Both the position numbers and the translations under genes were made by a program. Under the pieces are notes generated by a model. That model did not search any database and was not told the origin of the DNA. It saw nothing but the letters and a program-made list of their open reading frames with translations. DNA of 64,000 nt from a virus: positions 1 to 64,000 of the IMG/VR virus record IMGVR_UViG_3300035669_000001; one strand, written 5' to 3'. This document shows, in pieces, positions 2,754 through 44,806 of this stretch (positions are counted from its first letter, which is position 1; the number at the start of each line of letters is the position of its first letter).

Positions 2754-3088
2754 CCGTCCATGACCTGGTGGTGGTTCGGTCGGACCGACACTGCGAGGCC
2801 ATGGTCAAGGTCAGGGGGATCTACACCCGCTGCGGGAAGTTCGCCGAGGACGTCCACCACCGGCTCACCAGGTCGCGTGGTGGAGACGTCCTCGACCGCG
2901 AGGGCGAGACCTACCACCTGATCAACCTGTGCCACAACCACCACATGTGGGTGCACGCCAACATCTCCGAGGCCACCCGGAGCGGGCTCTACCTGCTCGG
3001 TCAGGTCTTCATCGACGGAGGCCGGGTGCTCTACCTCGGTCCCGACCAGTACCTCTCACAGCGTTACGGAAGGAGTCTCAGTGCCTAA
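2750..3088 (+). CDS. HNH endonuclease
   Basis: RCEA-like CEA...RC...HHRLTRSRGG...NLCHNHHMWVH; TTG start overlapping holin stop. Confidence 0.8.
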   Translation: MTVHDLVVVRSDRHCEAMVKVRGIYTRCGKFAEDVHHRLTRSRGGDVLDREGETYHLINLCHNHHMWVHANISEATRSGLYLLGQVFIDGGRVLYLGPDQYLSQRYGRSLSA

Positions 3089-27952: not shown

Positions 27953-29950
27953 GTGAGTATCGACCAGTCCAACTACGCCCAGATGGTGGACGTCACCCAG
28001 GAGGGTGAGGTCAAGCAGCTGCCTGTCGGCGGGATGTTCGACGAGATGGGCGGGACCGGGCTCAAGCGCTCTGCGGGGGTCATCGACGAGGAGTTCATGC
28101 CCGCCCTCCGGGGCACCAAGGGCGTCGCGGTCTTCCGGGAGATGTCGCTCAACGACTACACCGTGGGCTCGTTGCTGTTCACGATCGAGATGCTGCTGCG
28201 CCAGATCGACTGGACGGTGACCGGGGACGACACCTCACCGGAGCAGTCAGAGGCTGTGCAGTTCGTGGAGGAGTGCATGGACGACATGTCCCACTCCTGG
28301 AACGACATGATCGCCGAGATCCTCTCGATGCTCACCTACGGGTGGGCCTGGCACGAAATCGTCTACAAGAAGCGGGTAGGGCCCTGGGAGACCGACCCCA
28401 AGAAGCGCTCCAAGTTCACCGATGGCCGGATCGGGTGGCGCAAGATGCCCATCCGGGCCCAGGAGACGCTGTTCCGGTGGATCTTCGACGTCGACGGCGG
28501 CATCAAGGGGCTCGTGCAGATCCCTCCCCCGGACTACACCCAGCGCACCTTGAGCATCGAGAAGGGCCTGCTGTTCCGCACCGGGATCCACAAGGGCAAC
28601 CCCGAGGGCCGGTCAATCCTTCGGAACGCGTACCGCCCGTGGTACTTCAAGAAGCGCCTGGAGGAGTTCGAGGCGATCGGGGTCGAGCGTGATCTTGCGG
28701 GCCTTCCATTCGCCAAGATCCCCAGCCGGCTGATGGACCCGAACGCCTCCCCTGCTGAGAAGCAGATGTACGCAGCGTTCAAGAAGCTCGTGGCCAACGT
28801 CCGGCGGGACGAGCACGAAGGGGTAGTGATTCCCAGCGACGTCGACGCCGAATCCAAGGCCCCCAAGTACGACTTCCAGCTCCTCGCCTCCGGGGGCAGC
28901 CGCACCTTCGACACCAACGCGCTGATCGGCCGCTACGAGCTGGCCATCCTCTCGACCGTTCTGGCCGACTTCCTCAAGCTGGGTCACGAGGGTCAGGGCT
29001 CCTACGCCATGCACGTGGACAAGACCGGCATCTTCCGGGCTGCTCTCAACACCATAGCCACTGCCATCGCCGACGTCTTCAACCGCTACGCGATCCCGAG
29101 GCTGTTCGCGGCCAACTCCTGGAAGCTGGACAAGCTCCCCAAGATCGAGCCCTCCAACGTCGACCCGCCCAACCTGGCCGAGCTGGGCCAGTTCATGACG
29201 TCCATGGCGGGCCTGGGGATGACCTTCTTCCCCGACCCCGACCTCGAGAAGTACCTGCGTGACACCGCGCACCTCCCCGCCCTCTCAGAGGAGCAGGAGG
29301 AGATGCACCGGATGATGAGCGAGCAGGCCAACGCGATGGAGTTCATGGGGGCCAAGCAGAAGGCCGAGATGGTGGGCCAGGGGATGACCCCCGAACAGGC
29401 CCAGATGCAGTCGGAGATGCCCACCCCGGAGATGCAGGCCCAGGATCCCCAGGCCCAGGCGACCAACCAGAAGATGCAGATGGACCAGGCGGCCTCTGAG
29501 CAGAAGATGGCCCAGGAGGCACAGTCCCACTCACTGCAGCAGGCCACCCAGGCCCAGGGGCTGGAGCAGGCCACCAAGGAGACCGACCTCAAGGCCAAGC
29601 AGGGCGAGGCCGAGCTGGCGACCGAGATGAAGCGGATGCAGATGGAGCTCGACGCCATGAAGGCCAAGATGGGCCTGGAGGCAGAGGGTTCCAAGCAGAC
29701 CCTGGACGCCAAGGCCAAGGGCTCCGCGCTCGACCTCAAGGCCAAGGAGGCGAGCACCAAGGCCGACCTGGACGCCAAGAGGCGGGGCAACGTGATCGAC
29801 CTGAAGGCCAAGCAGGCCCAGGCGAAGCTGCGTCCACAGCCGGCCGCAGGAAGGTCCAAGGGACGCGGAAGGGTGAGCAAGAACGGCAATCTCGGGCCTT
29901 CCAACGGCTGGGGCTGGCCGAACGATGACAACCCGTTCCGTAGGTCCTGA
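27953..29950 (+). CDS. Portal protein (Mu gp29/DUF935-like) with long C-terminal extension
   Basis: MLTYGWAWHEIVYK, GNPEGRSILRNAYRPWYFKK, GVERDLAGLP, AIPRLF..N. Confidence 0.92.
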   Translation: MSIDQSNYAQMVDVTQEGEVKQLPVGGMFDEMGGTGLKRSAGVIDEEFMPALRGTKGVAVFREMSLNDYTVGSLLFTIEMLLRQIDWTVTGDDTSPEQSEAVQFVEECMDDMSHSWNDMIAEILSMLTYGWAWHEIVYKKRVGPWETDPKKRSKFTDGRIGWRKMPIRAQETLFRWIFDVDGGIKGLVQIPPPDYTQRTLSIEKGLLFRTGIHKGNPEGRSILRNAYRPWYFKKRLEEFEAIGVERDLAGLPFAKIPSRLMDPNASPAEKQMYAAFKKLVANVRRDEHEGVVIPSDVDAESKAPKYDFQLLASGGSRTFDTNALIGRYELAILSTVLADFLKLGHEGQGSYAMHVDKTGIFRAALNTIATAIADVFNRYAIPRLFAANSWKLDKLPKIEPSNVDPPNLAELGQFMTSMAGLGMTFFPDPDLEKYLRDTAHLPALSEEQEEMHRMMSEQANAMEFMGAKQKAEMVGQGMTPEQAQMQSEMPTPEMQAQDPQAQATNQKMQMDQAASEQKMAQEAQSHSLQQATQAQGLEQATKETDLKAKQGEAELATEMKRMQMELDAMKAKMGLEAEGSKQTLDAKAKGSALDLKAKEASTKADLDAKRRGNVIDLKAKQAQAKLRPQPAAGRSKGRGRVSKNGNLGPSNGWGWPNDDNPFRRS

Positions 29951-32900
29951 TGCCCTGGGAGCGCACCGGCAGCGGCTACAAGACCGCCAAGGGCGGCTTC
30001 GTCCGTAATCCTGGTCAGTACGAGACCCTTAGGTCCAAGGGGATGTCCAAGAGACGTGCGGCCATGATCTCCAACTCGGTGGGCAAGTCCTACATCGGCG
30101 GCAAGTTCGTCCGGGCGGTGGACCTGACCGCCGAGCAGCGCAAGGTCCTGGGCGCAGGCAAGTACATCCTTTACCGCGGCCGCAACAAGCATGTCAGCAG
30201 AGGTCTTGAGAGGTTCGGACCGAACAACCAATGGAGGCAGTCTCGAGGAGCCAGCGGCAACCGGGGCACCCACCTCAACGAGTACAGGGCAGGGTGGAGC
30301 GCTACCAAGAACGTCGTCGCAGCGCCAGGGAACATGGGTGGTGCTCGCCGGAACAAGCAGGCGTACCGCCGGCTTGAGCAGGTCAACGGGGAGACCAACA
30401 CCGCTGCCTTCACCATCCGTACCGGGTCCAAGAGCACAGGCAAGTCCCACGTCTTCTACAACCGGAAGCGGATGCAGGAGGCCGAGAGTCATAAGCCCGG
30501 CTACCTGGCTGCCGTAGCTCCACACGAGCACGCCCATGCCGCTCCCAAGAGGTCCGGCTACCGGCTCTTCCAGGTCATCCAGGACCCTGCCACGCTGGGA
30601 CGCGAGGAGGCCAGGGCGGACTTCATCGCCTCAGGTGGGAAGCCGGTCAGGGGGCTGAAACGCACGTCCTTCTACGCCCACAACGCCCTGCGGGATCGAC
30701 AGGCGTCCAAGTACAAGTACGTGAAGGACGTCGGGGGCAAGCAGGGCGAGTTCGGTGCGTCCTACATCGCGCACACCCGGATGCTGCACAACAAGATCAG
30801 CAAGCCAAAGAAGGTGTCCAAGGCGTTCGGCGGGGTCAAGCGGGTGGCAGGAGCCTTCGCCAGGAAGCCCACAGCAGAGGCCGCGACCTTCGTGGACAAC
30901 CGGGTGGCTCAGGTTGCTCCCGGGATCACCAGGGCCGCTGCACCGCCGAAGAACGCCACCCAGTCACTGGTCAGCGACACGTTGGCCCACATCAACCGGG
31001 TCAAGGCCAGCCCTCCTGCTGCTGTCCCCTTCGCCCCGCACAAGCCCAAGACCATCGGGTCACTGGGGGCCGAGTGGCATCCCAAGCCACAGGCAGCCGC
31101 TGCGTCCGGGGCTCTCAGCTTCAAGGGCCACAAGGCGCCTCCGCTGACCAAGCCCGCACCAGCGAAGGCAAAGCCTGTTCAGGCACCCCCACCCGCTGCT
31201 CCTCGGCTCTCCCGTGTTGGTGCCCAGCGGAGCAGGTCGGGGTTCCAGGGGTTCACCCGGAGGCCCAGGGTTGTTCCTGCGGCCCCCAGTGCCCCTCCCA
31301 GGGCCGCTCCTGCAGTCACCAGGCCACCTAGTGCCCAGCCGGTGAGCACACCGACCCAGGCTCCGCGTGGCAACGGCCGGCGCAACGCCGGCATTGCAGC
31401 AGCCGGTGCAGGTGCGGTAGGTCTTACCGGAGCAGCGGTCTACTCGAGGAGGAAAAAGGTGGACGGCGTATCAAAGGCGTTCTCCCTACGCGGGGTCGCC
31501 CCGCGCCGGATGGGGGTCAACGTCGGCCAGCATGCCGGTGTGAACACACCACGCAGGGCCGGTGGCTTGTCGAGCATGTTCCAGCGGGGCAGTGCGCCGA
31601 AGCGCGCCATGCAGGCAGGCTCGCGGGAGATGGGTGTCGCTGCCAGCCCTCGTCGGCTGATGGGTCCAGGTGCCGCCCCAGGTGGCGGCATCAACCCCCG
31701 CGGGACTGGACGCCCTGCCAGTGCTGTGGGCCGTCCAGGACTGGCTGCTGCTCCCTCGGTGGCCGCCGGTGGTCCTGCCGCGGCCGCACCCAAGGTGGGA
31801 GGCATCGCCCGTCCGGTCGGTTCCGGCAGCAGGCCGGCGCCGAAGACCGGCGGGATGGCCCGGCCCTACGCCCCGGTGCCCAAGCCTCCGGTGACCACTC
31901 CCAAGCTGCCAGGGGCTGCTGCAGCGCGTCCGTACGCGCCTGTCCCTGTCGCTCCGAGGACCAGCAACCGGAACCGTAACCTTGCCCTGGGAGCAGGCGC
32001 TGTGGGTGCTGGCGGGCTCGGCATGGCCGGTGGTGCTCTCGGGCAGCGCAAGGTCCGCAAGTCCTTCTCGCCCAACCAGGCACGAGACGAAAGGGGCAGG
32101 TTCATGCCCATGGTGCAGATGCTCCAGGTCAACGACTTCGAGCAGACCGAGGACAACGTCGAGAAGAAGTTCGACCGGACCGACAAGATCATCGCCGGAC
32201 TGTCAGCAGTCGGGTTGGCCGGTGCCGGGGCTGCCGCCTACAAGGGCAACAAGGAGGCCAAGCGTCTGGGTGGCACGAAGGGACTCACCACCAAGGAGAA
32301 GATCTTCGGTGTCCGGGGCAAGGTTGCCCAGTGGGCCGGTACCGAGAAGCCCAAAGGTTGGAAGCCCTCGGACCGGGTGCACAAGTCTCTGCGGGTCACA
32401 GGGGCACGTCGGCTCCCGGGGTACAAGCCACATCCTGACGACGTGGAGGAAGCGGTCGCCCTGGCACGCAAGCAGTTCCCCGGTCGCAAGACGACCAAGA
32501 AGGAGGTCCTGGAGGAGCTTCAACCCTCTGGTGGTCTGGGTGGTGTAGCAGGTAGGGGCTTCGGGGCAAGGTCGAACCGCATCTCCAAGGGCTCTCCCGA
32601 CATGGCCGACGTCCACATCGAGGGTGTGCTGCGTCCGGTCGGCAAGATGCGTCGTGCCCGGGTGGAGAAGGGCATGGTCGTGGTGGGCAAGGCCGACGAG
32701 CCCCGCAAGCCCGGCCAGTGGAACGCCAACCAGCGTGCTGGCGCTGCTGGACTGGTGAGCACGTTGGCCGGTGGTGCCATTCCCCTCGGGGTAGGGATCG
32801 GCGCTGGCAGTGCTGCGCGCAAGGGCAAGCGGTTCAAGACCGGCGGCAACGCCTTCGTCCGCACCGGCGCGGAGGGCGGCGTCGGGGGTGCTGTGGGAGC

Positions 32901-33039
32901 AGGTGCGGGTATGTTGACCCGCAACCGTATGGCTACGAAGATCGGCGCAGCTCTCGGTGGAGGTGTCGGGACCGTCCACGGTGCCAATCGGTCGATCGCC
33001 AACTCACGTCGCAAGGGATACCTGAGGAGCGGTTTCTAG
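29950..33039 (+). CDS. Very basic modular head-associated protein (candidate polyprotein)
   Basis: 1029 aa, R/K/A/G/P-rich; about 10 [VI]xK[SAGKM] sites; HEHAH motif; RDERGRF; PDMADVHI. Confidence 0.75.
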   Translation: MPWERTGSGYKTAKGGFVRNPGQYETLRSKGMSKRRAAMISNSVGKSYIGGKFVRAVDLTAEQRKVLGAGKYILYRGRNKHVSRGLERFGPNNQWRQSRGASGNRGTHLNEYRAGWSATKNVVAAPGNMGGARRNKQAYRRLEQVNGETNTAAFTIRTGSKSTGKSHVFYNRKRMQEAESHKPGYLAAVAPHEHAHAAPKRSGYRLFQVIQDPATLGREEARADFIASGGKPVRGLKRTSFYAHNALRDRQASKYKYVKDVGGKQGEFGASYIAHTRMLHNKISKPKKVSKAFGGVKRVAGAFARKPTAEAATFVDNRVAQVAPGITRAAAPPKNATQSLVSDTLAHINRVKASPPAAVPFAPHKPKTIGSLGAEWHPKPQAAAASGALSFKGHKAPPLTKPAPAKAKPVQAPPPAAPRLSRVGAQRSRSGFQGFTRRPRVVPAAPSAPPRAAPAVTRPPSAQPVSTPTQAPRGNGRRNAGIAAAGAGAVGLTGAAVYSRRKKVDGVSKAFSLRGVAPRRMGVNVGQHAGVNTPRRAGGLSSMFQRGSAPKRAMQAGSREMGVAASPRRLMGPGAAPGGGINPRGTGRPASAVGRPGLAAAPSVAAGGPAAAAPKVGGIARPVGSGSRPAPKTGGMARPYAPVPKPPVTTPKLPGAAAARPYAPVPVAPRTSNRNRNLALGAGAVGAGGLGMAGGALGQRKVRKSFSPNQARDERGRFMPMVQMLQVNDFEQTEDNVEKKFDRTDKIIAGLSAVGLAGAGAAAYKGNKEAKRLGGTKGLTTKEKIFGVRGKVAQWAGTEKPKGWKPSDRVHKSLRVTGARRLPGYKPHPDDVEEAVALARKQFPGRKTTKKEVLEELQPSGGLGGVAGRGFGARSNRISKGSPDMADVHIEGVLRPVGKMRRARVEKGMVVVGKADEPRKPGQWNANQRAGAAGLVSTLAGGAIPLGVGIGAGSAARKGKRFKTGGNAFVRTGAEGGVGGAVGAGAGMLTRNRMATKIGAALGGGVGTVHGANRSIANSRRKGYLRSGF

Positions 33040-33042
33040 GCC

Positions 33043-35121
33043 ATGACCCAGCCCAAGGTCGTGATCCACGGGAAGTTCGAGGACGGAGACCTCCCCGCCC
33101 AGGGGACGCTGACGTTCTCCGACTTCGCCTTCTCCACCGACACGGTGGAGAACGTCATCCACGTCCCCCACACGGAGAAGGCCTACCTCGACCAGAACGG
33201 TGAGTTCTGGGTGGAGCTGCCCCTGAACGTGGGCATCAACTCCACCCCCACGCCCCGCCGGTACTCCGTGGACATCGCCGTCTCGGGGTTCGCCGACTCC
33301 TGGGAGTTCGTGCTCGACCCGACTTCCCTGCAGGTCGAGCTCTCCTCCCTGATGCCGGTCAACGCCCCGCCGGTGATCCCCTACCAGTACGTCTCCTCGC
33401 TGATGGGCATGACGGGCCCGATCACCTACTCCGACTTCATTGAGCGCGTCCCACAGCTGGCCCCGGACGCCGGCAAGAGCGCCTACGAGCTCTGGGTGGA
33501 CCAGGGCAACACCGGGTCGTTCTCCGACTTCCTGGACGACATCTCAGGCCCTCCTGGGATCATGGGGCCGCGCGGTGCCCAGGGAGACATAGGCACCGAG
33601 GGCCCACGGGGGCTGAGAGGCCCGGCTGGACCCCAGGGCAGGCCCTTCCACCTCGACGCCATCGTGATGACCGAGTCGGCTCTCAGTGGCGGTGGAGGGG
33701 TGCTCACCGACGACGAGCAGACCGTCCTGATGCCCAAGTGGAGCATCGTCGCCGTCTTGGAGAACCAGTCCTTCTACCACTTCGACGGGGTCGAGTGGCG
33801 CAACCTCGGCTCCTACAAGGGCGCGCAGGGGGAGCCGGGCAACACCCCGACCGCGGCCGACCTCGGGCTCGGGACCTTCGTGGGCCTCACCCCGGCCACG
33901 ATGCCCATCCCCGGCTCGGTGCAGATCGCCCTGAACACCCTGGCGGCCAACGTGGGCCAGGTGCAGAGTGTCAACGGCCAGGTCGGTGAGGTGGAGATCG
34001 GCGCGGACGACGTGGGTCTCGGCAACGTCGCCAACCTGGCTCCCTCCCAGATGCCCGTCTCGGCCGACACCCAGGCGGCCCTGAACGCCCTGAGCGTCCT
34101 GCTGGGGGGCAAGGAGCCCCTGCTGCCCTCGGGCGGCACGGTGACCACCTTCCTGCGCGGGGACAAGTCCTGGCGCACCCTGATCCCCGCTGACGTGGGT
34201 CTGGGGCAGGTGCGGAACTTCGCCTCGATGAACGTGCTGGGCTCGGTGAGCCTGGACGCCGTGACCTCCACCGGCACCTACCACCAGCCCTTTGACACGG
34301 TCGCCTCCACCGACCTGGGCTACCCGGTGAACAGGGCGGGCTTCCTGGTGGTGGTGGCCAACAACGACGGCACCAAGATGGTCGCCCAGAGCTACACCAC
34401 CTACGGCTACGCGGGGTCGGAGTCCCGGGTCTATCTGCGCGCGATCTACGCCACCAACTCCTGGGGCCCCTGGCGGCAGGTCTACACCTCATCGGGTGCT
34501 GACCCCTTCACGGCGCAGTCCTACCGGGGCACCTCGGGTGGAGGGGTGTCAGCCTCCGGTGTGGTGCATGCGCGGTCCTTCGTGGCCAGTGCGGGCATCT
34601 CGGCTTTTGACCTGGACTCCGCAGCAGGGGTGACGGTGTCCTACCCGCTGGCCCCGGTGGTCGGCACCCTGCCGGACGCCTTCCCACAGGGGTACTCGGT
34701 CTGGCGCCTGCAGGCCGGTGCAGCCGGCAGCCCCACCGGCTACCCGGTTCTCTCGGGCACACTGGAGAGCTACCGCAACACCTTCTACCCCAGGCAGCGC
34801 CTCACAGCAGTCGACGGCACGGTCTACACCAGGACCTTCTCGGGAACCTGGTCGCCCTGGAAGGTCAGCGACAACCTCCAGTTCCTGGCCGGTCAGGTGG
34901 CCATCCTGCCCTCTGCCATCGACGTCCCCACCTCGGTGGTGGTCAACCTTCCGGCTGGGAGGTTCAGCGTCCCGCCTGTTACCGTCGTCTCGGCCAACTC
35001 CTCGGTGCCCGACCGGATCCACGTCAGCACCCAGCTCGCCACGGTGGACTCCTTCACCGTCACCATGACCCGGTCGTCCGTGGCCAACACCTTCATCAAC
35101 TGGCTGGCCGTAGGAGTCTGA
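33043..35121 (+). CDS. Tail fibre with pyocin-knob-like domains
   Basis: SAYELW, collagen, VQSVNGQVG..DVGLGNV, two knob-like repeats ending WGPW/WSPW, C-terminal H-lectin-like INWLAVG. Confidence 0.8.
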   Translation: MTQPKVVIHGKFEDGDLPAQGTLTFSDFAFSTDTVENVIHVPHTEKAYLDQNGEFWVELPLNVGINSTPTPRRYSVDIAVSGFADSWEFVLDPTSLQVELSSLMPVNAPPVIPYQYVSSLMGMTGPITYSDFIERVPQLAPDAGKSAYELWVDQGNTGSFSDFLDDISGPPGIMGPRGAQGDIGTEGPRGLRGPAGPQGRPFHLDAIVMTESALSGGGGVLTDDEQTVLMPKWSIVAVLENQSFYHFDGVEWRNLGSYKGAQGEPGNTPTAADLGLGTFVGLTPATMPIPGSVQIALNTLAANVGQVQSVNGQVGEVEIGADDVGLGNVANLAPSQMPVSADTQAALNALSVLLGGKEPLLPSGGTVTTFLRGDKSWRTLIPADVGLGQVRNFASMNVLGSVSLDAVTSTGTYHQPFDTVASTDLGYPVNRAGFLVVVANNDGTKMVAQSYTTYGYAGSESRVYLRAIYATNSWGPWRQVYTSSGADPFTAQSYRGTSGGGVSASGVVHARSFVASAGISAFDLDSAAGVTVSYPLAPVVGTLPDAFPQGYSVWRLQAGAAGSPTGYPVLSGTLESYRNTFYPRQRLTAVDGTVYTRTFSGTWSPWKVSDNLQFLAGQVAILPSAIDVPTSVVVNLPAGRFSVPPVTVVSANSSVPDRIHVSTQLATVDSFTVTMTRSSVANTFINWLAVGV

Positions 35122-35122
35122 C

Positions 35123-35665
35123 ATGGGTCGTCTGGTCGAGAGACTGAGATGGCTTGCATCCAAGCCACTGCTGTTCGGGCACTGGATTGTGGAGAAGATC
35201 GACGACTCCAGGATCAAGGCGTGTCCGGTCACCCGGGCCCTGATCCGGCTCATCTCCTCGGCGACCTTCGTCTACGCGATGGCGATCATGGTCGGTGGTG
35301 AGAAGCGCTGGTCCCAGGTCACCTACTCGGTCCTCAACCAGTTTCCTGGTTCTCCGTACAGCTGGGCCTCGATCCTGATGACCACGACGGTGATGGTGAT
35401 GGCCGGGTCGCTGCTGGCCTCGCACGACCACTCCTGGGGCCAGTGGCTGAAAGACGCCGGGTTCTTCCTCGGGTGCCTGTGGTGGATCACCTTCGGGCTC
35501 TGCGTGGCCAGCGCGGTCACCCCCACCAACTCGGTGCCCTTCTCCACTGCGGTATTCCCGTTGCTGCCTATCGTCGTCTACGTCTGTCTGGGCATGGTCG
35601 ACGAGCGCAACTCCTTCGACGACGAGGAGATCTTCGCCAGGCCCTACCACTCACACCCCGCGTAG
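35123..35665 (+). CDS. Membrane protein (4 TM)
   Basis: Four hydrophobic segments. Confidence 0.75.
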   Translation: MGRLVERLRWLASKPLLFGHWIVEKIDDSRIKACPVTRALIRLISSATFVYAMAIMVGGEKRWSQVTYSVLNQFPGSPYSWASILMTTTVMVMAGSLLASHDHSWGQWLKDAGFFLGCLWWITFGLCVASAVTPTNSVPFSTAVFPLLPIVVYVCLGMVDERNSFDDEEIFARPYHSHPA

Positions 35666-35673
35666 GAGCCGCC

Positions 35674-36135
35674 ATGATCCAGAAACACTCCATCCCCTCG
35701 CCCAACCCTGTCGCGTTCGGGATGAGCGTTCTGCTGATGGTGGCGTTGGTACAGATAGCCAGGGGCCAGGGTGACGTGCCGGTCTCTCTCCAGGAGATGC
35801 CTACCACCGGGATCGTCGCGCTCTACGGGATGGCACTGGGCTGCCTGATGGTCATCGGGGGCAGCGCGTTCCAGGTCCCGTCGCGCTTCCTCTCGCTCCG
35901 CACCAGGATCAACGGCTTCTGGGTGGAGTTCTTCGGCAGTGTGCTGGTCGGCTTCGGTACGGTGGCCTACTGGCTGGCGATCTACCTGGTCAACCCGGTG
36001 CAGGGCACCCTTGCGGGGTTCTCCAGCGCCTGTCTCACACTCATGTTCTGTGGTCGGGGGATCCAGATCATCCGTCTCGTCCTCCGAGTGGGGAGGGAGG
36101 CGGATGCTCTCCGGGCGAAGGAGTCCCTCGAGTGA
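35674..36135 (+). CDS. Membrane protein (4 TM)
   Basis: ATG after AGGAG; four hydrophobic segments. Confidence 0.75.
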   Translation: MIQKHSIPSPNPVAFGMSVLLMVALVQIARGQGDVPVSLQEMPTTGIVALYGMALGCLMVIGGSAFQVPSRFLSLRTRINGFWVEFFGSVLVGFGTVAYWLAIYLVNPVQGTLAGFSSACLTLMFCGRGIQIIRLVLRVGREADALRAKESLE

Positions 36136-36539
36136 ACACGCAGCTGGTCTACAACGTGATCCTGGCGGTCGTCGGGACCACGTGGTTCGGCAGTGCCTTG
36201 ATGTTCTTCCTGACCCGGAGGCGCTTCCGCGCCGACGTCCGGAAGGTGGAGGCCACCATCACCACCGACGAGGCCAACACCGCACGGATCATCACCGAGA
36301 CCTCCTCCGGGCTGCTCAAGGACGTCAACGCCCAGTTGGCGGCCCAGGCCAACCGGATCGCCAGCCTGGAGCAGTCCCGGGTCGCCACCATCGCCTTCAT
36401 GCGCCGGCAGGGGATGGCCCTGCGGCAGATGCGGGACATCGTTCTCGTGCTCAACAAGGAGCTCGAGAAGGTCGACGGGAAGTCCCATCCGGTGCCCGAC
36501 ATCGACGAGATCCTCAACACCGACATCACTAGCCTGTGA
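36132..36539 (+). CDS. Single-TM coiled-coil protein (holin/lysis accessory-like)
   Basis: N-terminal TM, RRRFR, coiled coil, HPVP end. Confidence 0.7.
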   Translation: MNTQLVYNVILAVVGTTWFGSALMFFLTRRRFRADVRKVEATITTDEANTARIITETSSGLLKDVNAQLAAQANRIASLEQSRVATIAFMRRQGMALRQMRDIVLVLNKELEKVDGKSHPVPDIDEILNTDITSL

Positions 36540-36554
36540 TGGGAGAATCCTGGT

Positions 36555-39338
36555 ATGGCGTTCAACGAACACTGCGCTCAGCGCGTCTACGACATCGTCT
36601 CCAAGATGGACGACGACGAGGCCCAGATGTTCGGCCTCCTGGTGGCCCACGACGTGTGGTCGCGTGACGTCCGGGCCAACGAGCGGTACCTCCGCCGGCT
36701 GAAGGACTCCTACGATGCCGAGGTCACGGACACGGTTGCCAAGGCCCTCCTCGAGCACCTGGACGAGGGCGGCGACCCTGAGGCTGCTGTGGCGGTCGCA
36801 GCGGCTGTGGCAGTCGCGAAGGACGACGACGACTGGTGGAAGTTCCAGGAGCGCGACAAGCAGGGTCGCTTCGGCCGGATGACCGGTGCCCAGTACCGGG
36901 CCAACCTGAAGGCGATCAAGGCCAGTGCCAAGCTGACCCAGGCTGAGCGCAAGGCGCAGCTGAAGGACGCCAGGTCCGGACGGGCCAACTACCTCAGCGG
37001 CTCGGGGCTCTACGTCGACGTCAAGGGAGGCGGTCAGGGAGTCGTCCGAGGTACCCAGAGGTTCGAGCAGGACTGGAACCGCCCACCGGACGAGGAGTCC
37101 AACGCCACCACCACCTTCAACCGGCTGAAGACCGGCGGCCAGACGGTGCAGGCCATCGGCGCCGCCACGGGCAGCCAGAAGCTAGCCATCGCGGGTGCGG
37201 TGGGCAACTACGCCGGTCAGTTCGGCCCGGAGGCCGAGAAGGTCGTCGGGCCCTCCATCCGGCGGACCGCCTACCGCTACCGGGGGACAGAGCGTCGTCC
37301 CGACGCTGCCTACGTGCAGATCGCCCAGGCCAACCTCAACGAGGTCAAGCGTGAGGGGCAGCCGGTCACTGCGGAGCAGAAAGCCTTCGCGGCCGAGACC
37401 GCGGCGATCCGGTACTTCCTCGGTGACGACCCGACGGCTGGCAAGCGGGGCGGTGGCTCACGCATCCCCAGTGCGAAGCTCTCCGGGCTGCACCGCGCCT
37501 CGGGCCGGATCACCCCCTCCGAGGGCATCATGATCGACGCCAACGGCAACATCGCCCACCAGGCGGTCGGCTACGGCGAGGACCACTACCTGCCCTTCAA
37601 CCTCAAGAACCTCTCCGCGCTCAAGGGCGGCTCCTACATCCGGACGCGCGAGAGCGGCGGTCTGACCACCGAGGACATCTACACCGGTCTGGTGGCCGGT
37701 GCGCGCTCGATGACGGTGGTGAGCAACTCCGGGGTCTTCACAGTGGACTACGCCGACGACCTGCGCGGAGGCAGGCGCTACAACGACAAGGCCCGGCAGA
37801 TGGTCAGCCGCTACGGCCAGACCCTGGACGCGATCCAGTCCGAGAAGGTGGCCAACCCGGAGCGCGGCCTGTCCTCGCGGGAGAGGGCGAAGATCCAGGT
37901 CGAGACCGAGCAGAAGATCAACGAGGACCCGATCCTGCGGTCCTTCCCCGACGACCAGAAGAAGTCCTGGGTCAAGGAGGCGATCCAGCGCGCCGAGTCC
38001 ACCACCCAGCTGTCCGAGGACGAGATCGCCGAGATCGACCGGAAGTCCAAGGAGCAGGGCAAGACCAAGTCCGACCAGGACATCTTGTTCCGTCAGCTGT
38101 ACGACGAGAAGATCGACGCGGTCAGCCGCCGGCACTACCGGTTGGACGGTGAGGGTTACGCCACCTCGATGGAGGCGCTGCGCGAGCAGTTCCCCTACTA
38201 CATCTCCAACATCAGCTACCGCACGGTCAAGAGCAACGACTCGCTGGCTCCCGACAGGTTCAACCGGGCCACCGACAAGGGCTACGTCAAGCCGCGGTTC
38301 AACCGGCCCGAGGGAGCCCAGTCGGGCTACTACGACGACACCATCACCGGCAGGGGCAAGACCAGCGCCGACCGGACGGACTACCAGAACTGGCGGGTCC
38401 GGGCCAAGCGCGGGGGAGATGTTGCGGCTGTTGCGGATGTTGCGGCAACCACGGGTGCCCCCAACAGCATGAAGGCCACCCAGGACAAGTTCGCGGCCGA
38501 GGCCAAGGAGAAGGCCGGCGACCCGTTGATGAACAACGCCATCATCTCCGACGCCGACTCCCTCAAGGCCACCCACGAGGCCTCCCGCGAGGCCAAGGCC
38601 GGTGGCATCGGGATGCAGTACGAGGGTGTGCACGAGTGGTTCAACGCCGACGACTCCGAGCGGCACGCCATCATGGCCGACCCGGCCCGCAGGGCGAAGC
38701 TCAAGGCCGACATCACCAAGGTGAAGCGGGACTACGCCAAGGAGTTCGGTTCCTCCGCGCCGCAGAACATCGAGTTTGCCGAGAAGAAGGCGAAGACCGC
38801 CATGATGAGCGACGAGGTCCTCGCGGCCGAGAAGGCCCCGGACACCCCGCTGCGGATCACCGACGAGCAGTTCGAGCAGGCGGCTCAGACCGACCACATC
38901 CGCAACCTCACCCAGCAGGAGGACCACGACCTGCAGGCGATCAGCCAGGACCTGCGTACCCAGCGCGCCCTCACGGCGAAGGCGGGCAACGACAAGGAGA
39001 CCACGTCGCTCACCCAGCAGATCACCGCGCTGGAGTACGCCCGCGCCCTCAAGGCCCGCACCACCGAGGTGCCGACCGACGTCTACGCCGAGATCGCCCA
39101 GCGCACCAGCCCGACCAAGGGCACGCTCACCCCGGTGCCGAAGGTCTCGTCGAGGGCCACGCTCACGTCCACCCAGGCCACTGAGCAGGTCCGCCGGCTG
39201 CACAACCAGCACCGGCTCGGGCTGATCGACGCCAACGAGTTCGAGCGGAGCGTCAGAGAGGTCATCGAGGACTCCGACATGGACGATAACGAGAAGCAGG
39301 TTGAGTACCGCCGTGCTACCGGGAACATCATGCGGTGA
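36555..39338 (+). CDS. Large head-associated protein with degenerate JAB-like domain
   Basis: VSKM/VAKA/VAKD sites, RDKQGRF, E-GIMIDANG...LKGGSYIRTR..GGLTTEDI. Confidence 0.7.
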   Translation: MAFNEHCAQRVYDIVSKMDDDEAQMFGLLVAHDVWSRDVRANERYLRRLKDSYDAEVTDTVAKALLEHLDEGGDPEAAVAVAAAVAVAKDDDDWWKFQERDKQGRFGRMTGAQYRANLKAIKASAKLTQAERKAQLKDARSGRANYLSGSGLYVDVKGGGQGVVRGTQRFEQDWNRPPDEESNATTTFNRLKTGGQTVQAIGAATGSQKLAIAGAVGNYAGQFGPEAEKVVGPSIRRTAYRYRGTERRPDAAYVQIAQANLNEVKREGQPVTAEQKAFAAETAAIRYFLGDDPTAGKRGGGSRIPSAKLSGLHRASGRITPSEGIMIDANGNIAHQAVGYGEDHYLPFNLKNLSALKGGSYIRTRESGGLTTEDIYTGLVAGARSMTVVSNSGVFTVDYADDLRGGRRYNDKARQMVSRYGQTLDAIQSEKVANPERGLSSRERAKIQVETEQKINEDPILRSFPDDQKKSWVKEAIQRAESTTQLSEDEIAEIDRKSKEQGKTKSDQDILFRQLYDEKIDAVSRRHYRLDGEGYATSMEALREQFPYYISNISYRTVKSNDSLAPDRFNRATDKGYVKPRFNRPEGAQSGYYDDTITGRGKTSADRTDYQNWRVRAKRGGDVAAVADVAATTGAPNSMKATQDKFAAEAKEKAGDPLMNNAIISDADSLKATHEASREAKAGGIGMQYEGVHEWFNADDSERHAIMADPARRAKLKADITKVKRDYAKEFGSSAPQNIEFAEKKAKTAMMSDEVLAAEKAPDTPLRITDEQFEQAAQTDHIRNLTQQEDHDLQAISQDLRTQRALTAKAGNDKETTSLTQQITALEYARALKARTTEVPTDVYAEIAQRTSPTKGTLTPVPKVSSRATLTSTQATEQVRRLHNQHRLGLIDANEFERSVREVIEDSDMDDNEKQVEYRRATGNIMR

Positions 39339-41506
39339 GCGTCCCCGCCTTTGACCAGGAGCCACTGACGCCCCAGGAGGCCTACCAGGTCGACTACGTC
39401 ATCCGAGGGGCACAGGGGGGCTCCACGCTGGCTGTGGCGGCCGCACTGGGCGGGGCCTTCCTGGTGTACCGGGCGTACATGCGGAGACGCCTGCGGGAGC
39501 GCATGGGCTCGCTGGAGGGCACCACGCCCGAGGAGGTGATGCGCGAGACCAACCAGGTGTTCTCCACCTTCATGCCCACCTGGACGGCGATGGCCGCACC
39601 TGCTCTCTTGCAGGGCTACCTGTCCGGGGTGGCCGAGACGGAGTTCGGGCTGGACGAGGCGTTCCTGTCCGAGCTGGCCGATAACTACGCCTACTCCCTC
39701 GGGATGCACATCAACCAGGTCTCCGGCGACGCTCTCGTGCGCGGGTACGCGGCCCAGGTGAACCGGAAGGTCCCGGCCAAGGTCGCCCTGGGCAACGTGA
39801 TCGACGCGGTCGGGGTGACCAACTCCCACATGCGGACTCTGAACGTGATGCTCTCGGGCAAGGAGGACGCCAAGCTCAGCGAGACCCTGATCCCCTCGGT
39901 CAAGAAGGCCAGGGCACAGCGCCAGGTGATGGCCGCCCTCAACCAGCGCGCCGAGGTGATCGGCGACTCGGAGTCCTGGAACGCCAAGCAGCAGGGCAAG
40001 CAGATCGCCTGGTTGTACGCCCAGCGTCAGGGGTTCATCCCCTCCACCGCTACCCGGGAGTGGATCACCGCCGACGACGAGCGGGTCTGCCCGTCCTGCG
40101 GCCCGCTGCACAAGGTGGAGCTGCCGGTCGCCGAGCAGTTCGACATCCCGAACGTCGGCAAGTTCTGGTCCCCGCCCGTGCACCCGAGGTGCCGCTGCGA
40201 CGTGCGTCTCAAGGTCGGCCTGGGGCAGATCATCGCCAACAACGTGGTCTTCGGGCAGTTCGGCCGGCAGTGGCTCAAGCCCGACGACGTCGAGGAGGTC
40301 GGAAAGTCCGACAACCCCCACGACAACGACTGGGACACCCAGCCGAGACAGAAGACCGGCAGGTTCGGCGCGCGTCCTGAGGTTCGTTTCAAGGAGGCTG
40401 ACGTCGACCTCGATGCGGCCATCGCCCAGGCCACCCAGGCGGCGCAGATCGAGGACGCGGTACCCAAGGGTCCGATCCTCGGGCGAACGGTGCTGGGAAA
40501 GCCAGGGGTGATAGGCGAGACGACACTGGGCAAGCCTCCGGTGCTCGGCCAGGTCGTCCTCGGCAAGCCTCCTGTCCTCGGCGGGTCCAAGCTCGAGTCG
40601 CAGGGTCTGCAGGCCCAGCGGATGAAGTCTCACGCCCTGCAGGGCCGCAAGCTGGACAAGAGCAAGCTGGACCATGCCAGGCGGATGGCCCGGGCCGAGA
40701 TGGACGGCCGGATCATGGCACTGCCCGGGGACATCTCGGGCACGGTGGTGGACGACGAGGTCAAGGCACCCGAACCCGACTACTCCGACCTGGTGCCCAC
40801 TCCGGAACCCATGTTCGCCGTTGCCGATCCGCGTTGGGTTATTCGTGGACCAAACACCGACTCGCGTTCAATCAACGCTTCCAACGGTATGTACCGGCTG
40901 GACGGAGCCGAGGTGATAGGCGGGGTGGACAAGCTCCAGGCCAAGATCGAGGAGCTCGAGGCCGAAGCTGACGACGAGTACCTGGAGTACCTCTTTGACA
41001 GTAATGAGGCGAGCTACTTCGACAACGAAACCGGTTGGGAGAGTCCCGTCCCCGAGCACGTCTACGCCGCAGCTATGGAGTGGGTTCGGGCCCAGGAACA
41101 GACAAACATGGCGGTGGCGGACTTCACGGTCGAGCTTGATGCGTACGGGCCGCTGTGGACCAAGGACGGCACGCCGGTGGAGGGAGGGTACAACCATCCT
41201 GACTACGAGGCCCTCTACGAGAACGGGGATATTGAGTTTGACCTGGTTGACAGCCAGTACGTGCAGATCTCTGACATCGCGGACAAACTGAGTCTTTGGG
41301 AGCACGTCAGCGATACTCAGCCCCGGATCATCCAGCTGGACAAGGTCAGGGGCAACGACGTCGACTACGACCCTGACGGTGCTCCTTATGCCCAGGTGAG
41401 CGATAGCTACAAGATGGACGGGATGTCCACGGTCACCATCAACGGGAGGCACTATGTGACCGCCCGACTCGAACCGGCCTGGCTGGACGAAGGCGGGAGA
41501 ATGTAG
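39335..41506 (+). CDS. MuF-like (gpF/SPP1 gp7) minor head protein with C-terminal extension
   Basis: EWITADDERVCPSCGPLH...PPVHPRCRC. Confidence 0.88.
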   Translation: MSVPAFDQEPLTPQEAYQVDYVIRGAQGGSTLAVAAALGGAFLVYRAYMRRRLRERMGSLEGTTPEEVMRETNQVFSTFMPTWTAMAAPALLQGYLSGVAETEFGLDEAFLSELADNYAYSLGMHINQVSGDALVRGYAAQVNRKVPAKVALGNVIDAVGVTNSHMRTLNVMLSGKEDAKLSETLIPSVKKARAQRQVMAALNQRAEVIGDSESWNAKQQGKQIAWLYAQRQGFIPSTATREWITADDERVCPSCGPLHKVELPVAEQFDIPNVGKFWSPPVHPRCRCDVRLKVGLGQIIANNVVFGQFGRQWLKPDDVEEVGKSDNPHDNDWDTQPRQKTGRFGARPEVRFKEADVDLDAAIAQATQAAQIEDAVPKGPILGRTVLGKPGVIGETTLGKPPVLGQVVLGKPPVLGGSKLESQGLQAQRMKSHALQGRKLDKSKLDHARRMARAEMDGRIMALPGDISGTVVDDEVKAPEPDYSDLVPTPEPMFAVADPRWVIRGPNTDSRSINASNGMYRLDGAEVIGGVDKLQAKIEELEAEADDEYLEYLFDSNEASYFDNETGWESPVPEHVYAAAMEWVRAQEQTNMAVADFTVELDAYGPLWTKDGTPVEGGYNHPDYEALYENGDIEFDLVDSQYVQISDIADKLSLWEHVSDTQPRIIQLDKVRGNDVDYDPDGAPYAQVSDSYKMDGMSTVTINGRHYVTARLEPAWLDEGGRM

Positions 41507-41508
41507 CC

Positions 41509-42360
41509 ATGGACGTACTGGAGGCTCTGCGCGCGCACGGTGAGGCTGGGGCGGCTGTCGTGGACCTGCTCTACGGCGAGGGTGCGGAGGAGGTTGTCAA
41601 GGCTCTCAGTGAGGACCGCAAGCGGAAGATCGCCACCGCCTCCAACGTGGTCGGGATCGGCGCTGGGCTGGCTGCCATCCCCGGTGCCACCCGCGACTTC
41701 CGGAACGCCGCGAAGACTGCCAGGGGTGCCAGTGACAAACCGGTCGGCGTCCTGAAGCCGGTGGGCAAGATCCGGGGCAACATCCGCGGTGGTCTCAAGG
41801 CCACCAAGAACTTCCTGGGCAAGCCGAAGACCGCGCTGGCACTGGCCGGCGGCGGTCTGGCCCTGCAGGCGGGGAACGTCGGCGGGGACTTCGTGACCAA
41901 CCAGGTCCTCCGCGCCGACCAGAAGAAGTCGGGCGTCTCCAAGGGGCTGACCGACATCGAGTGGACCGGCGAGTTCTCCAAGATGGACACCGACAAGCGC
42001 CAGGTGTTCGGGTGGGCCTCGGTCACCGCGGTCGACGGCGTCCCGGTGACCGACCTCCAGGAGGACGAGATCGACCTCGAGGAGATCGAGAAGGCCGCCT
42101 ACTCCTACGTGGCCAAGTCCCGGGTCGGCGGCAACATGCACAAGAAGACCATCGACGGCTCCCCGGTGCACGTCTCCGACATGATCGAGTCCTTCGTGGT
42201 CACCCCGGAGAAGAAGCAGACGCTGCACCTGGGCAACGACACCCCGGAAGGGTGGTGGGTCGGCTTCCAGGTCAACGACGACGAGACCTGGGACGCGGCC
42301 AAGAACGGCGAGCTGGTGGGCTTCTCGATCCACGGAACGGGAAAGAGGCGTGACGGCTGA
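41509..42360 (+). CDS. XkdF-like prohead serine protease with N-terminal extension
   Basis: KRQVFGWASV...DLQEDEI...EKAAY...NMH...IESF...PEGWWVG...TWDAAKNGELVGFSIHG. Confidence 0.9.
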   Translation: MDVLEALRAHGEAGAAVVDLLYGEGAEEVVKALSEDRKRKIATASNVVGIGAGLAAIPGATRDFRNAAKTARGASDKPVGVLKPVGKIRGNIRGGLKATKNFLGKPKTALALAGGGLALQAGNVGGDFVTNQVLRADQKKSGVSKGLTDIEWTGEFSKMDTDKRQVFGWASVTAVDGVPVTDLQEDEIDLEEIEKAAYSYVAKSRVGGNMHKKTIDGSPVHVSDMIESFVVTPEKKQTLHLGNDTPEGWWVGFQVNDDETWDAAKNGELVGFSIHGTGKRRDG

Positions 42361-43589
42361 TGCCCATGGTGAAGCTGGTGTTCGTCCCGGAGACGACGAA
42401 CAAGCCGACCAGGCAGTCCCACAACATCGTGGCGCTGCCCAAGATCGAGCCTCTGCAGGGCAAGGGGAAGCCCCAGTTCGGGCGCAACGGCAAGCCGGTC
42501 AGCAACGTCTCCGATGCGCTGTTCGGGCGCGGGGGAGGCGTCCACACCGACGTGATCCGCAAGGCCCTGAGCAGGGAGCAGAAGGTGGGCGTGGGAGCCG
42601 CCGGCGTGGTAGGTGCCGGGCTGGCAGCAGGTTCGGTCGGACGAGCGGTCAGATACGGCGGCCAGGCGCGCAACGCCTTCCGGGTGGCCCAGGGTTTTAG
42701 TCATGGCCCCGCCCACCAGGCCGGGGCCACCCTCAAGCAGTACGGCGCACATCGCAGGAAGATGGCTCTCCGCAACGTGGGTGCGGCGACAGTGGCGGGC
42801 GGGCTCCTGGCTGGCGGTACGGCCGCCACGATGTCCAGTGCCAACGCAGCGAACCAGCGCCGCACCGGTGTGGCCAAGATGAGTGACGCGGAGCTTCGCC
42901 ACCGCAAGCGCGTCCAGGCCGGGATCAGCATCGGCACCTCCACCCTCGGTCTCTCCGCGCTGGGGTCAAAGGCCGGGGCCGGTGTGCTCCGCAAGCTCAA
43001 CAAGGCCCCGGGTGCGGCCCATCGGCTGGACAAGGCAACCACCAACCTGCTCACCAGCGGTGCAGGACTGGGTGGGGTCGGTGGGTTCAACTTCGCCTCG
43101 GTGCAGCGCCAGGAGGCCAGGAAGCGGACGCCGGTGGTAAAGGCTTACGACCCCGAGCGCAACCGGGAACGCAGGGCCAGGCAGGAGGCCAAGGTGGCAG
43201 GAGTCGTCGGAGGTGCAGCGTCCGGCGGTGCGCTAGCGGCTGGAGGTCTCGCAGCACGACGTGGGTTTCAACGCCGGGACGAGACCACCCGGATAGGTAG
43301 TCCGGTGGAGCTCGAACAGGAGGTTCTCCCCGGTGGCGGCAAGACCCGACTGGACCCGAGGGGGCGAGTTCACCACGGGCCTGCTCGGAAGTTCCGGACG
43401 GCGAACTTCGGGGAGAAGATGTCCTCGGCGACCAAGGTCAAAGGGCTCAAGGCCAGCCAGGTGAGGGCGGGCAAGGTCGGTGTCGGACTGGCCGCGCTGG
43501 GCGTCGGCGGGCTGGTTGCGTCGGACCGGATCGCCTCCTACTCCCGGGGGAAGGGGCGGAAGTACTCACCCCGGTTCAAGCGGGACTGA
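42360..43589 (+). CDS. Basic Gly-rich modular protein (candidate polyprotein)
   Basis: Three cassettes starting at IRK|A, VAK|M, VVK|A, each with two Gly/Ala hydrophobic segments. Confidence 0.75.
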   Translation: MPMVKLVFVPETTNKPTRQSHNIVALPKIEPLQGKGKPQFGRNGKPVSNVSDALFGRGGGVHTDVIRKALSREQKVGVGAAGVVGAGLAAGSVGRAVRYGGQARNAFRVAQGFSHGPAHQAGATLKQYGAHRRKMALRNVGAATVAGGLLAGGTAATMSSANAANQRRTGVAKMSDAELRHRKRVQAGISIGTSTLGLSALGSKAGAGVLRKLNKAPGAAHRLDKATTNLLTSGAGLGGVGGFNFASVQRQEARKRTPVVKAYDPERNRERRARQEAKVAGVVGGAASGGALAAGGLAARRGFQRRDETTRIGSPVELEQEVLPGGGKTRLDPRGRVHHGPARKFRTANFGEKMSSATKVKGLKASQVRAGKVGVGLAALGVGGLVASDRIASYSRGKGRKYSPRFKRD

Positions 43590-43627
43590 ACGGGTTGCAG
43601 GCTAAGACAGAATTGTGGGTGAGGAAC

Positions 43628-44806
43628 ATGCCAAAGCTCAGTGATCTGAACATCGACGAGGTCAGCCTCGTGCGCAAGGGCGCCAACCAACATGCCCGGG
43701 TGGCAATCGCGAAGTCAGCAGGAGGAGAAGTGGACGAGGAGTACTTCGACCAGGAAGGAAACGCGGTCGACGTCGAGGAGCTCGAGCATGGCGACATCGT
43801 CTTCGACTCTGACGGTGAGGCCTACCAGTACGACGAGCCTGGTGACGATGACGACGAGGTCGAGAAGGCCCTGTACGTCGGTGGCCGCGAGGTCACCAGC
43901 CGGGTCGGACGTGCCGCTGGCAAGGCGTACATCGGAGCCGGCCGCAAGGCCAAGTCCGCCAACAAGTTCCGGATCCAGACAGGTGCGATTGCCGGGCAGG
44001 CAGCCCGCAGGGGCGCCAAGCGTGTATCCAGCGCTGCCGGTACGGGTGCCGGGTTCGTCGCCGGCAACGCCAAGCGTGGTGCAGGGGCAGTGGCGGGAGC
44101 CGCACGTAGCACCGGCACGGCAGCCGGGAACGCGGGCAACGCCATGGGCGGGGCGATCCGCGGGGCCGCGGCGCAGACCGAGGGCTTCCTGCGCACCGAG
44201 AACAACGCCTTCAACACCCGCGGCCGGATCGGCGCCCTCGGTGCCGGTGGTGTGCTCGCCGGTGCCGGTGGCGGCTACGCGGCAGGCAGCAACGGCCGGG
44301 TCCGCAAGAGCGCGTCCGACGACCTCCGGGAGGAGCTCTCCAAGGCACTCACCGACGACGACCGGGACGAGGTGATCGCGAAGGCCTTCGGGTACGTCGA
44401 ACAGGCCGAGCAGGTCGCCCAGGAGGCCTGGGAGATCGCCGAGGAGGAGCGGGAGAACCGCCGGGCTGCGGAGTTCTACGAGGTGGCCAAGTCCTACGAC
44501 ATGGTCCCGGTGGATACCGAGGACCTCGCGATCGCCATGATGCACATGGCCGACCTGCTGCCCGAGGAGGACGTGCAGGTCATCGCCAAGGCCCTGGGCT
44601 TTGCGGCCGACGTGGCCGACGAGCTCTACGAGGAGCAGGGCAACGTGGGCGGTGGCGACAACTCCGACGTGATGGAGCAGCTGCAGACGTTCGCGCGCAA
44701 CCGGGTCGCCAAGTCCGGTGAGGGCTCAGCCGAGCAGTACCTGGTCGATGCCCTCAACCATGACCCAGCGGTGTACGACCAGTACCTCGCGGACAACAGC
44801 CGCTGA
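43628..44806 (+). CDS. Scaffolding protein carrying the protease EVSLV..AN strand and a basic insert
   Basis: MPKLSDLNIDEVSLVRKGAN; eight [VIL]xK[SA] sites; C-terminal PAVYDQY; lies before decoration and capsid genes. Confidence 0.8.
   Translation: MPKLSDLNIDEVSLVRKGANQHARVAIAKSAGGEVDEEYFDQEGNAVDVEELEHGDIVFDSDGEAYQYDEPGDDDDEVEKALYVGGREVTSRVGRAAGKAYIGAGRKAKSANKFRIQTGAIAGQAARRGAKRVSSAAGTGAGFVAGNAKRGAGAVAGAARSTGTAAGNAGNAMGGAIRGAAAQTEGFLRTENNAFNTRGRIGALGAGGVLAGAGGGYAAGSNGRVRKSASDDLREELSKALTDDDRDEVIAKAFGYVEQAEQVAQEAWEIAEEERENRRAAEFYEVAKSYDMVPVDTEDLAIAMMHMADLLPEEDVQVIAKALGFAADVADELYEEQGNVGGGDNSDVMEQLQTFARNRVAKSGEGSAEQYLVDALNHDPAVYDQYLADNSR

Follow-up and report, generated by a model that had tools for sequence, protein, structure and literature searches.

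Proposed cleavage-associated signals of head proteins

Phages are known to inject proteins together with their DNA, among them anti-defence enzymes, toxins and polymerases. Except in T4, P1 and a few giant phages, we know of no account of how such proteins are selected for the head. In T4, the capsid targeting sequence (CTS) of IPI-III and Alt is a short peptide next to a prohead-protease cut and is removed by gp21; the cargo, which includes ADP-ribosyltransferases (ART), is packed and injected with the DNA. In phiKZ and SPN3US, many unrelated head proteins are cut at S/A/G-x-E by the prohead protease and their C-terminal parts stay in the head, but to our knowledge no conserved, retained tag has been reported after these cut sites. 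Short portable peptides also dock cargo inside the HK97-fold shell of encapsulins, and in CdiA and similar proteins a pre-toxin motif (VENN) indicates where an exchangeable toxin module begins. The current study concerns a short peptide motif (the tag) found just downstream of a hydrophobic-x-Lys site in three otherwise unrelated head proteins, encoded in the first 64 kb (64,000 nt; the window) of IMG/VR virus record IMGVR_UViG_3300035669_000001, a single contig of 77.9 kb with a G+C content of ~66%. Probably, if only just, the three motifs are diverged copies of a widespread motif that heads capsid-internal payloads behind a protease site and docks to a component of the head interior.

The arrangement would represent a variant of protease-coupled head-cargo signals. 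As with the T4 CTS, a short peptide lies beside a prohead-protease-type site on unrelated head proteins. However, the T4 signal is N-terminal to its cut and is discarded, whereas the tag is downstream of the site and would be kept in two of the three protein families (the third, that of a 1029-amino acid (aa) protein, is a possible exception). The sequences and the protease family also differ, as does the cut itself (L-x-E in T4, apparently hydrophobic-x-Lys here), and the T4 CTS is lineage-specific while the tag is common to very different phages. The cutting of many unrelated head proteins at a short consensus, with their C-terminal parts kept, is proposed here just as it is known for phiKZ and SPN3US. 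With encapsulin peptides and VENN the tag shares no sequence similarity, and the likeness is that of a short portable peptide.

Two described protein classes have a comparable layout. The MuF polymorphic toxins of temperate phages combine an N-terminal MuF minor-head domain with a hypervariable C-terminal domain (Jamet et al. 2017, PMC5576092), as one protein of the window (723 aa, MuF-like) and many other tag carriers appear to do, but a text search of that paper gave no hit for a junction motif or cleavage, which it seems not to describe. The C-terminus of the 723-aa protein is variable and an orphan; the toxins are paired with an immunity gene, whereas here the next gene is that of a protease. 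Polyvalent proteins are large multi-domain proteins encoded among head genes and proposed to be packaged, processed and injected, with zincin-like metallopeptidase domains suggested for the processing (Iyer et al. 2017, PMC5512222). The proteins with several tags described below fit that picture, and a text search of that paper found no mention of the motif; a difference is that the putative cut site here matches sites in scaffold-like proteins and so points to the prohead protease.

Three tagged proteins and the wider motif class

The three carriers, with the putative protease site and the tag of each, are as follows (window coordinates):

29950-33039, + strand: 1029-aa head-module protein, basic and of low complexity, carrying the first cassette (ORF, open reading frame, with a Pfam match to DUF7218 at aa 18-47)
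32053-32061, + strand: V702-R-K704, putative protease site before tag 1 (relative P0125 has VRK↓AY at the same place)
32065-32103, + strand: tag copy 1, F706-SPN-Q-A-R-D-ER-G-R-F718
36555-39338, + strand: 927-aa protein of a large unnamed family, carrying the second cassette (relatives, alignment and AlphaFold)
36813-36821, + strand: V87-A-K89, putative protease site closing the N-terminal helical bundle
36834-36872, + strand: tag copy 2, W94-WKF-Q-E-R-D-KQ-G-R-F106
39335-41506, + strand: 723-aa MuF-like minor head protein, carrying the third cassette (Pfam, PHROG, TIGR01641 and AlphaFold2)
40298-40306, + strand: V322-G-K324, putative protease site, 34 residues past the MuF C-R-C motif
40331-40366, + strand: tag copy 3, W333-DT-Q-P-R-Q-KT-G-R-F344

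The original prediction had been that RxxxGRF follows a VxK site in three unrelated head proteins. All three peptides were confirmed in frame at the positions it gave: VRK↓SFSPNQARDERGRF in the 1029-aa protein (aa 702-718), VAK↓DDDDWWKFQERDKQGRF in the 927-aa protein (aa 87-106) and VGK↓SDNPHDNDWDTQPRQKTGRF in the MuF-like protein (aa 322-344), the arrow marking the putative cut. The register they have in common is longer than first proposed, [FW]-x(2,3)-Q-x-R-[DQ]-x-x-G-R-F, with an aromatic residue in all three copies (F706, W94, W333). The core, R-[DG]-x-x-G-[RK]-[FW], reads RDERGRF, RDKQGRF and RQKTGRF, the last with Q for D, and the Arg is 8, 11 and 14 residues, respectively, from V-x-K. 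For the 927-aa and MuF families the consensus sequences are RDxxGRF and HPRxxxGRF, respectively.

Among ~88 heuristic gene calls covering the 77.9-kb genome (22,021 aa), R-x3-GRF was found three times, all in these proteins, compared to an expectation of 0.27-0.28 (P(>=3) = 0.004). The combined pattern, [VI]xK-(3-26 aa)-RxxxGRF, has an expectation of 0.035, and none of 3000 composition-preserving shuffles gave three copies. A genome of 66% G+C is rich in Arg and Gly, and GRF occurs 8 times in it against 4 expected, which would favour a chance origin of the three copies; the shuffle tests, the restricted distribution and the fact that hundreds of relatives keep exactly these residues refute this, and the probability left to coincidence is close to nil.

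Just beyond the window, a 69-aa protein (genome nt 64262-64471, minus strand) has RTKGRF (R-x2-GRF) at aa 20-25. It has neither the aromatic/Gln register nor an upstream V-x-K, and is probably a chance occurrence.

The shared residues of the tag are differently encoded (CGA, CGC or AGA; GGC or GGT), which indicates conservation at the protein level rather than a DNA repeat. The 1029-aa, 927-aa and 723-aa proteins show no other significant pairwise similarity, and when the profiles of the 927-aa and MuF families were aligned with each other (hhalign), only the V-x-K...RD..GRF cassette matched. All three carriers are encoded in the stretch bounded by the portal and capsid genes.

More than 476 relatives of the 927-aa protein, all unnamed, are encoded on metagenomic contigs, of which many are 77-83 kb in length, and no fold or family match to the protein was found. 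Over the first 170 residues of the family, only K89, R100 and G104 are conserved at 90% or above (67 aligned relatives), and in 64 of these 67 the sequence [VI][SA]K is joined to R-[DG]-x(1-2)-G-[RKQ]-[FW] by a spacer that varies but contains an aromatic residue. In the AlphaFold model an N-terminal helical domain (aa 1-89) is followed by a linker containing the tag and by a long folded body. The confident bundle ends where helix 75-89 stops, at K89; the predicted local distance difference test (pLDDT) score falls below 50 for aa 87-99 and averages 45-57 over aa 91-110. The tag itself is modelled at low confidence, with an R100-F106 bridge that suggests a small hairpin. Further along the family alignment, from aa 190 to aa 605, about 60 positions are invariant; in a few members of the family an AAA+ domain is fused to the protein.

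The 723-aa protein falls short of formal assignment to MuF: Phage_Mu_F (PF04233) scores 28.0 bits, under the cut-off of 29.6, and TIGR01641 scores 21.8, under its cut-off of 39.65, but PHROG head-morphogenesis families match at E 4e-11 to 1e-7, and the CxxC...HxxCRC motif is invariant in its MuF relatives. Across 37 such relatives G342 of the tag is also invariant, on par with the cysteines of the Zn site, and R343 is conserved at 90% or above. The family consensus reads HPNCRC...V-x-K-A...HPR-x3-GRF, with no conservation beyond the tag. The C-terminal 406 aa of the window protein had no relative among 5.8 billion proteins other than its own record (100% identical). In the AlphaFold2 model the MuF fold (aa 7-300) is confident, disorder extends over aa 305-480, where the site and the tag are located (pLDDT ~44 at the tag), and a folded C-terminal domain occupies aa 480-720. 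Docking of the tag in cis onto the MuF domain was not seen in this model, which is weak evidence on the point. The low pLDDT around both modelled tags points to a short linear motif in a flexible linker, outside the folds on either side.

No toxin fold was recognised in the C-terminal domain of the MuF-like protein. Structural searches with payload folds (Foldseek, VIA-align) gave no convincing match, returning generic helical hairpins and, in the MuF protein, short ART-like local matches; in the Atlas every match had a TM (template modelling) score below 0.5. The disordered linker of this protein also contains approximately four tandem copies of (V/T)LGKP(P/G)V(L/I)G (aa 383-418, window 40481-40588).

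Few relatives were available for the C-terminus of the 1029-aa protein. These retain the cassette as VRK↓AY...RDARGQF, RARDGRF or RNRKGQF, and in one relative the last form stands at the extreme N-terminus, at the start codon (MEREMIRNRKGQF).

A survey of 982 proteins from 80 related loci found tags in relatives of the 927-aa and MuF proteins, in one C-terminal extension of a portal protein and in six unassigned proteins, three of which carry the full cassette of Lys site and tag. None was present in the terminase, capsid, scaffold-like or protease proteins of these loci. The restriction of the motif to head-module proteins, and the co-occurrence of the two elements in the genome and its relatives, are both supported. 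Within genomes, the tag subtypes of the 927-aa and MuF proteins match in some cases and not in others, which gives no support for co-evolution with one receptor.

Across phages of 39 to 71% G+C, conservation is far higher in the tag than in the sequence on either side. The canonical form of the tag is [WF]-[DE]-E-x-x-H-P-R-D-x-x-G-R-F, in which aromatic and acidic residues stand 5-8 positions ahead of the Arg and H-P directly before it. In all three window copies the canonical H is replaced by Q, and the P before the Arg is present in the MuF copy only. Some relatives of the 927-aa and MuF proteins have the canonical E-HPR-x3-GRF at the same alignment position, which ties the diverged tag to the canonical one. 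A DNA pattern for E-x-x-HPRD-x-x-GRF matched at least 119 stretches of viral contigs, compared to an estimated ~10 by chance. The matches listed comprise 82 distinct copies. In 66% of these, W or F stands two positions ahead of the Glu, 33 of the 82 follow a Lys within 8 residues, and 27 stand at a true protein N-terminus; Lys makes up 18-25% of residues at positions -5 and -4, relative to a background of 6.6%. Carriers among these matches include proteins of ~2000 aa encoded between the portal/MuF-protease genes and the capsid gene, MuF proteins and portal-MuF fusions. In others, modules that include RelA/SpoT or ART-like domains are set apart from each other by two to five tags.

An example from a cultured phage is gp4 of Pseudomonas phage Orisa03 (PP179327.1, nt 2270-4381), a 704-aa protein annotated as hypothetical, the gene of which directly follows the terminase genes. 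Its N-terminal part is probably a portal protein; this is followed by DFDENKHPRSDDGKF and then by an ADP-ribosyltransferase-like domain (LYRGM, FLSTS, EKEVLLP).

The original prediction had described motifs of this type as established in MuF and other head proteins. Their recurrence is confirmed in sequences, but no description was found in the literature, searched under several spellings, and no Pfam or NCBIfam model covers the tag, so that it belongs to a widespread motif class without a description found in literature or family libraries. SPP1 gp7 and TP901-1 ORF33 have no canonical tag, and single-sequence and profile searches of the PDB gave no significant instance. One candidate from the PDB searches, PRDASGRF in a loop of the baseplate hub gp26 of phage Milano (E 0.045-0.8), lacks the rest of the motif and was rejected. 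Also rejected was LDPRGRV in the 409-aa protein encoded from nt 42360, put forward earlier as a weaker copy: relatives of that protein lack the motif and cannot be aligned with it in this region.

The abrupt end of MuF homology at the tag, the orphan domain beyond it and the chaining of unrelated modules in multi-tag proteins would also be expected of a boundary motif in a shuffling system, like the pre-toxin motifs of polymorphic toxins. Such a motif would serve the exchange or processing of C-terminal modules, possibly with self-cleavage or a function after injection, and would have no receptor in the capsid. Conservation at the protein level despite different codons is more than DNA recombination alone would account for, and the strictly conserved Lys site, which is common to the scaffold, indicates the phage protease rather than self-cleavage; this explanation is regarded as highly unlikely.

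Proposed proteolytic processing and possible roles of the tag

A hydrophobic-x-Lys site ([VILFM]xK) is present within 30 aa upstream of the tag in all tag carriers of the 927-aa family (95/95) and of the MuF family (33/33), compared to 24-26% in controls, although relatives are not independent samples and these counts overstate the number of independent events. In relatives the site has V or I at P3, S or A at P2 and A, S, D or G at P1', and the spacing from the Lys to the tag Arg varies from 3 to 26 residues. The same site is ten-fold over-represented in the scaffold-like family (216 sites, with 21.5 expected from composition) and 2.4-fold in the protease family, compared to 1.0-fold in terminase. 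In the window, the 403-aa scaffold-like protein has four V-x-K-[SA] sites relative to 0.29 expected, the 1029-aa protein has six relative to 1.2, and cut-type sites are 3.3 times denser in the head module than in the rest of the genome. Prohead proteases classically process scaffolds and proteases, and since the site is enriched in both, it is probably the cut site of the XkdF-type prohead protease encoded next to the MuF gene (PF14550, aa 155-280; 69.2 bits, cut-off 24; E 4.2e-19).

The close coupling of site and tag, internal tags always being 3-26 residues downstream of a cut-type site, could mean that the tag is an exosite that recruits the prohead protease to low-copy cargo for efficient cutting at the nearby Lys and has no later role. 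The scaffold, being abundant and rich in sites, might not need such docking and has no tags. However, the same fact can be turned around, as a scaffold full of these sites and free of tags shows that the protease needs none. The site-to-tag spacing is variable, 27 of the 82 canonical tags among the matches listed are at a true N-terminus with no Lys site before them, and one 1029-aa relative starts with the tag. The exosite explanation is therefore thought decidedly unlikely.

A stricter version of the site occurs within 60 aa downstream of the tag in only 5 of 95 members of the 927-aa family and in none of 33 MuF members (controls, 16-22%). Given this depletion, any cutting that takes place would leave the tag attached to the downstream part. 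Together with the natively N-terminal tags of other phages, it agrees with the earlier proposal that the tag comes to lie near a new N-terminus.

It is firm that the motif is conserved, coupled to the site, confined to the head module and placed in a disordered linker, and the favoured interpretation builds on these points. Inside the procapsid, the XkdF-type protease would cut after the Lys of hydrophobic-x-Lys and so separate an N-terminal anchor from the downstream payload. In the 927-aa protein the anchor would be the 89-aa helical domain, in the MuF-like protein the MuF domain and in the 1029-aa protein its first 704 aa. Anchors in general would be of four types, a small helical domain, MuF, a portal or a long N-terminal region. 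Cutting would bring the tag to within a few residues of the start of the payload, the position that it has natively in stand-alone carriers. There it would act as a docking peptide, recognised in trans by some conserved component inside the head and serving to load the payload, to hold it or to order its exit with the DNA. Docking to a conserved head-interior partner is the most likely role, since the tag is better conserved than its flanks and precedes unrelated, exchangeable payloads. That the payloads are swappable is suggested by the MuF alignments and the orphan C-terminus described above.

An alternative is that the tag is a signal for exit rather than loading: once freed, the N-terminal tag would engage the portal channel, the DNA end or the DNA, and the payload would leave with the genome. 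Its retention on the payload in the 927-aa and MuF families fits this view, as do the suitability of an N-terminal position for threading and the conservation of the tag in MuF and portal fusions, the anchors of which should already place them at the portal vertex. The conserved acidic residues, however, speak against simple DNA binding, and the entry into the procapsid of stand-alone proteins with N-terminal tags would be left unexplained. This alternative is considered unlikely. The present data do not separate loading from exit.

Several points weigh against the docking interpretation. Cleavage after the Lys is deduced from enrichment and conservation, in families where, as stated, the relatives are not independent. 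No receptor for the tag emerged from the analysis. If an anchor of the MuF or portal type already brings a fusion into the head, a loading address would be redundant, and the tag conserved in fusions may serve another step. The aromatic residue beside the Lys may belong to the P' preference of the protease and not to the tag, as 10 of the 16 V-x-K-[SA] sites in the head module have F, Y or L at P2'. Finally, the 1029-aa family has a further V-x-K site past the tag, ~20 residues on in the window protein and ~30-40 in relatives, and its tag may thus end on a short, acidic, released leader peptide and not on a large payload. For the original prediction, which regarded the motif as a capsid-targeting or ejection address, the outcome is mixed: the tag behaves as a selected, head-restricted element behind a cut-type site, the 1029-aa family does not fit readily, and the address role is plausible but unproven. 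A broader version is put forward tentatively and is open to considerable doubt. In this version the tag is a portable address, near-universal among tailed phages, and a single conserved head component recognises it, for which the portal, the MuF domain and the inner capsid surface are candidates. Whatever protein starts with the tag, either natively or once cut by the prohead protease, would then be packed and retained in the capsid and would reach the host with the DNA; the injected proteome could in that case be read from sequence even for uncultured phages, and the addition of ~15 residues could load foreign cargo into capsids.

A short conserved tag of this kind, coupled to a protease site and common to unrelated proteins of very different phages, would be a sequence-level marker of a hidden injected proteome and a practical means of loading cargo into capsids. 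To the motif class this locus adds the diverged form with Q for H and a family of more than 476 members (that of the 927-aa protein) in which the position of the tag is fixed. It also connects the tag, by clear statistics, with the hydrophobic-x-Lys site and with the sites of the scaffold itself.

The head module and its other proteins

The region and its 927-aa and MuF proteins had no match among cultured phages (megablast, tblastn). Scans of viral contigs with single proteins found no relative of the 927-aa protein, and for MuF one weak 4-kb locus only. The head module, all on the + strand, has the gene order portal, 1029-aa protein, 692-aa protein, two small ORFs, 927-aa protein, MuF-like 723-aa protein, protease, 409-aa protein, 403-aa protein, 139-aa scaffold and capsid. 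The 80 related loci, collected from the 927-aa family alignment, have terminase, portal, variable genes, 927-aa protein, MuF, protease, scaffold-like protein, scaffold and capsid, and in this clade the 927-aa gene is always directly upstream of MuF. The gene after MuF encodes the protease and not a small immunity protein. Features of the module apart from the carriers are:

27953-29950, + strand: portal protein, at which the head module starts (Portal_Mu, E 1.5e-31; phrog_113, E 1.3e-84)
33043-35121, + strand: 692-aa collagen/fibre-like protein, within the head module
41509-42360, + strand: 283-aa prohead protease of the XkdF type (Peptidase_S78_2, aa 155-280; Pfam PF14550)
42360-43589, + strand: 409-aa Gly/Ala-rich basic protein
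43595-44806, + strand: 403-aa acidic scaffold-like protein with many [VI]-x-K-[AS] sites, in support of their reading as cut sites
45263-46258, + strand: major capsid protein (phrog_1005, E 1.6e-82, aa 5-330)

The capsid protein matches its family from residue 5 and therefore has no delta domain to trim. Two collagen/tail-fibre-like proteins are encoded, of 692 aa (33043-35121) and 695 aa (13111-15198); the former, between portal and MuF, is in an unusual place for a fibre gene.

Basic, Gly/Ala-rich hydrophobic segments flanked by V-x-K sites are inserted in four proteins, the N-terminus of the protease (window 41509-41940), the 409-aa protein (42360-43589), the scaffold-like protein (43880-44300) and the 1029-aa protein (31350-33039), and may be membrane-active peptides that are freed in the head. 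A second junction-like motif, hydrophobic-x-K↓AYDPE(R/K)xRxxR, is present in the 409-aa protein (aa 256-272, window 43125-43175). Gly/Ala-rich hydrophobic modules are headed by this motif both here and in related phages, where many unassigned proteins have it, and its first half resembles the tag form K↓AY(D/N)PxQxRD..GRW.

The 1029-aa protein has two further features. The sequence HEHAH (aa 191-195, window 30520-30534) aligns with HEQAH in relative P0126 and is possibly a metallopeptidase motif of the zincin-like kind suggested for polyvalent proteins; no Pfam model matches it. Further downstream the protein reads ISK↓GSPDMADVHIEGVLRPVGK (window 32587-32643), and the capsid protein begins with MPRPDMADVHINTPL (45263-45307), the two sharing eight identical residues directly after the cut-type site. 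Relatives of the 1029-aa protein retain an element (S/M)PD.ADVH(I/V).GVLRP.GK, which may mimic the N-arm of the capsid protein and provide a separate route into the procapsid.

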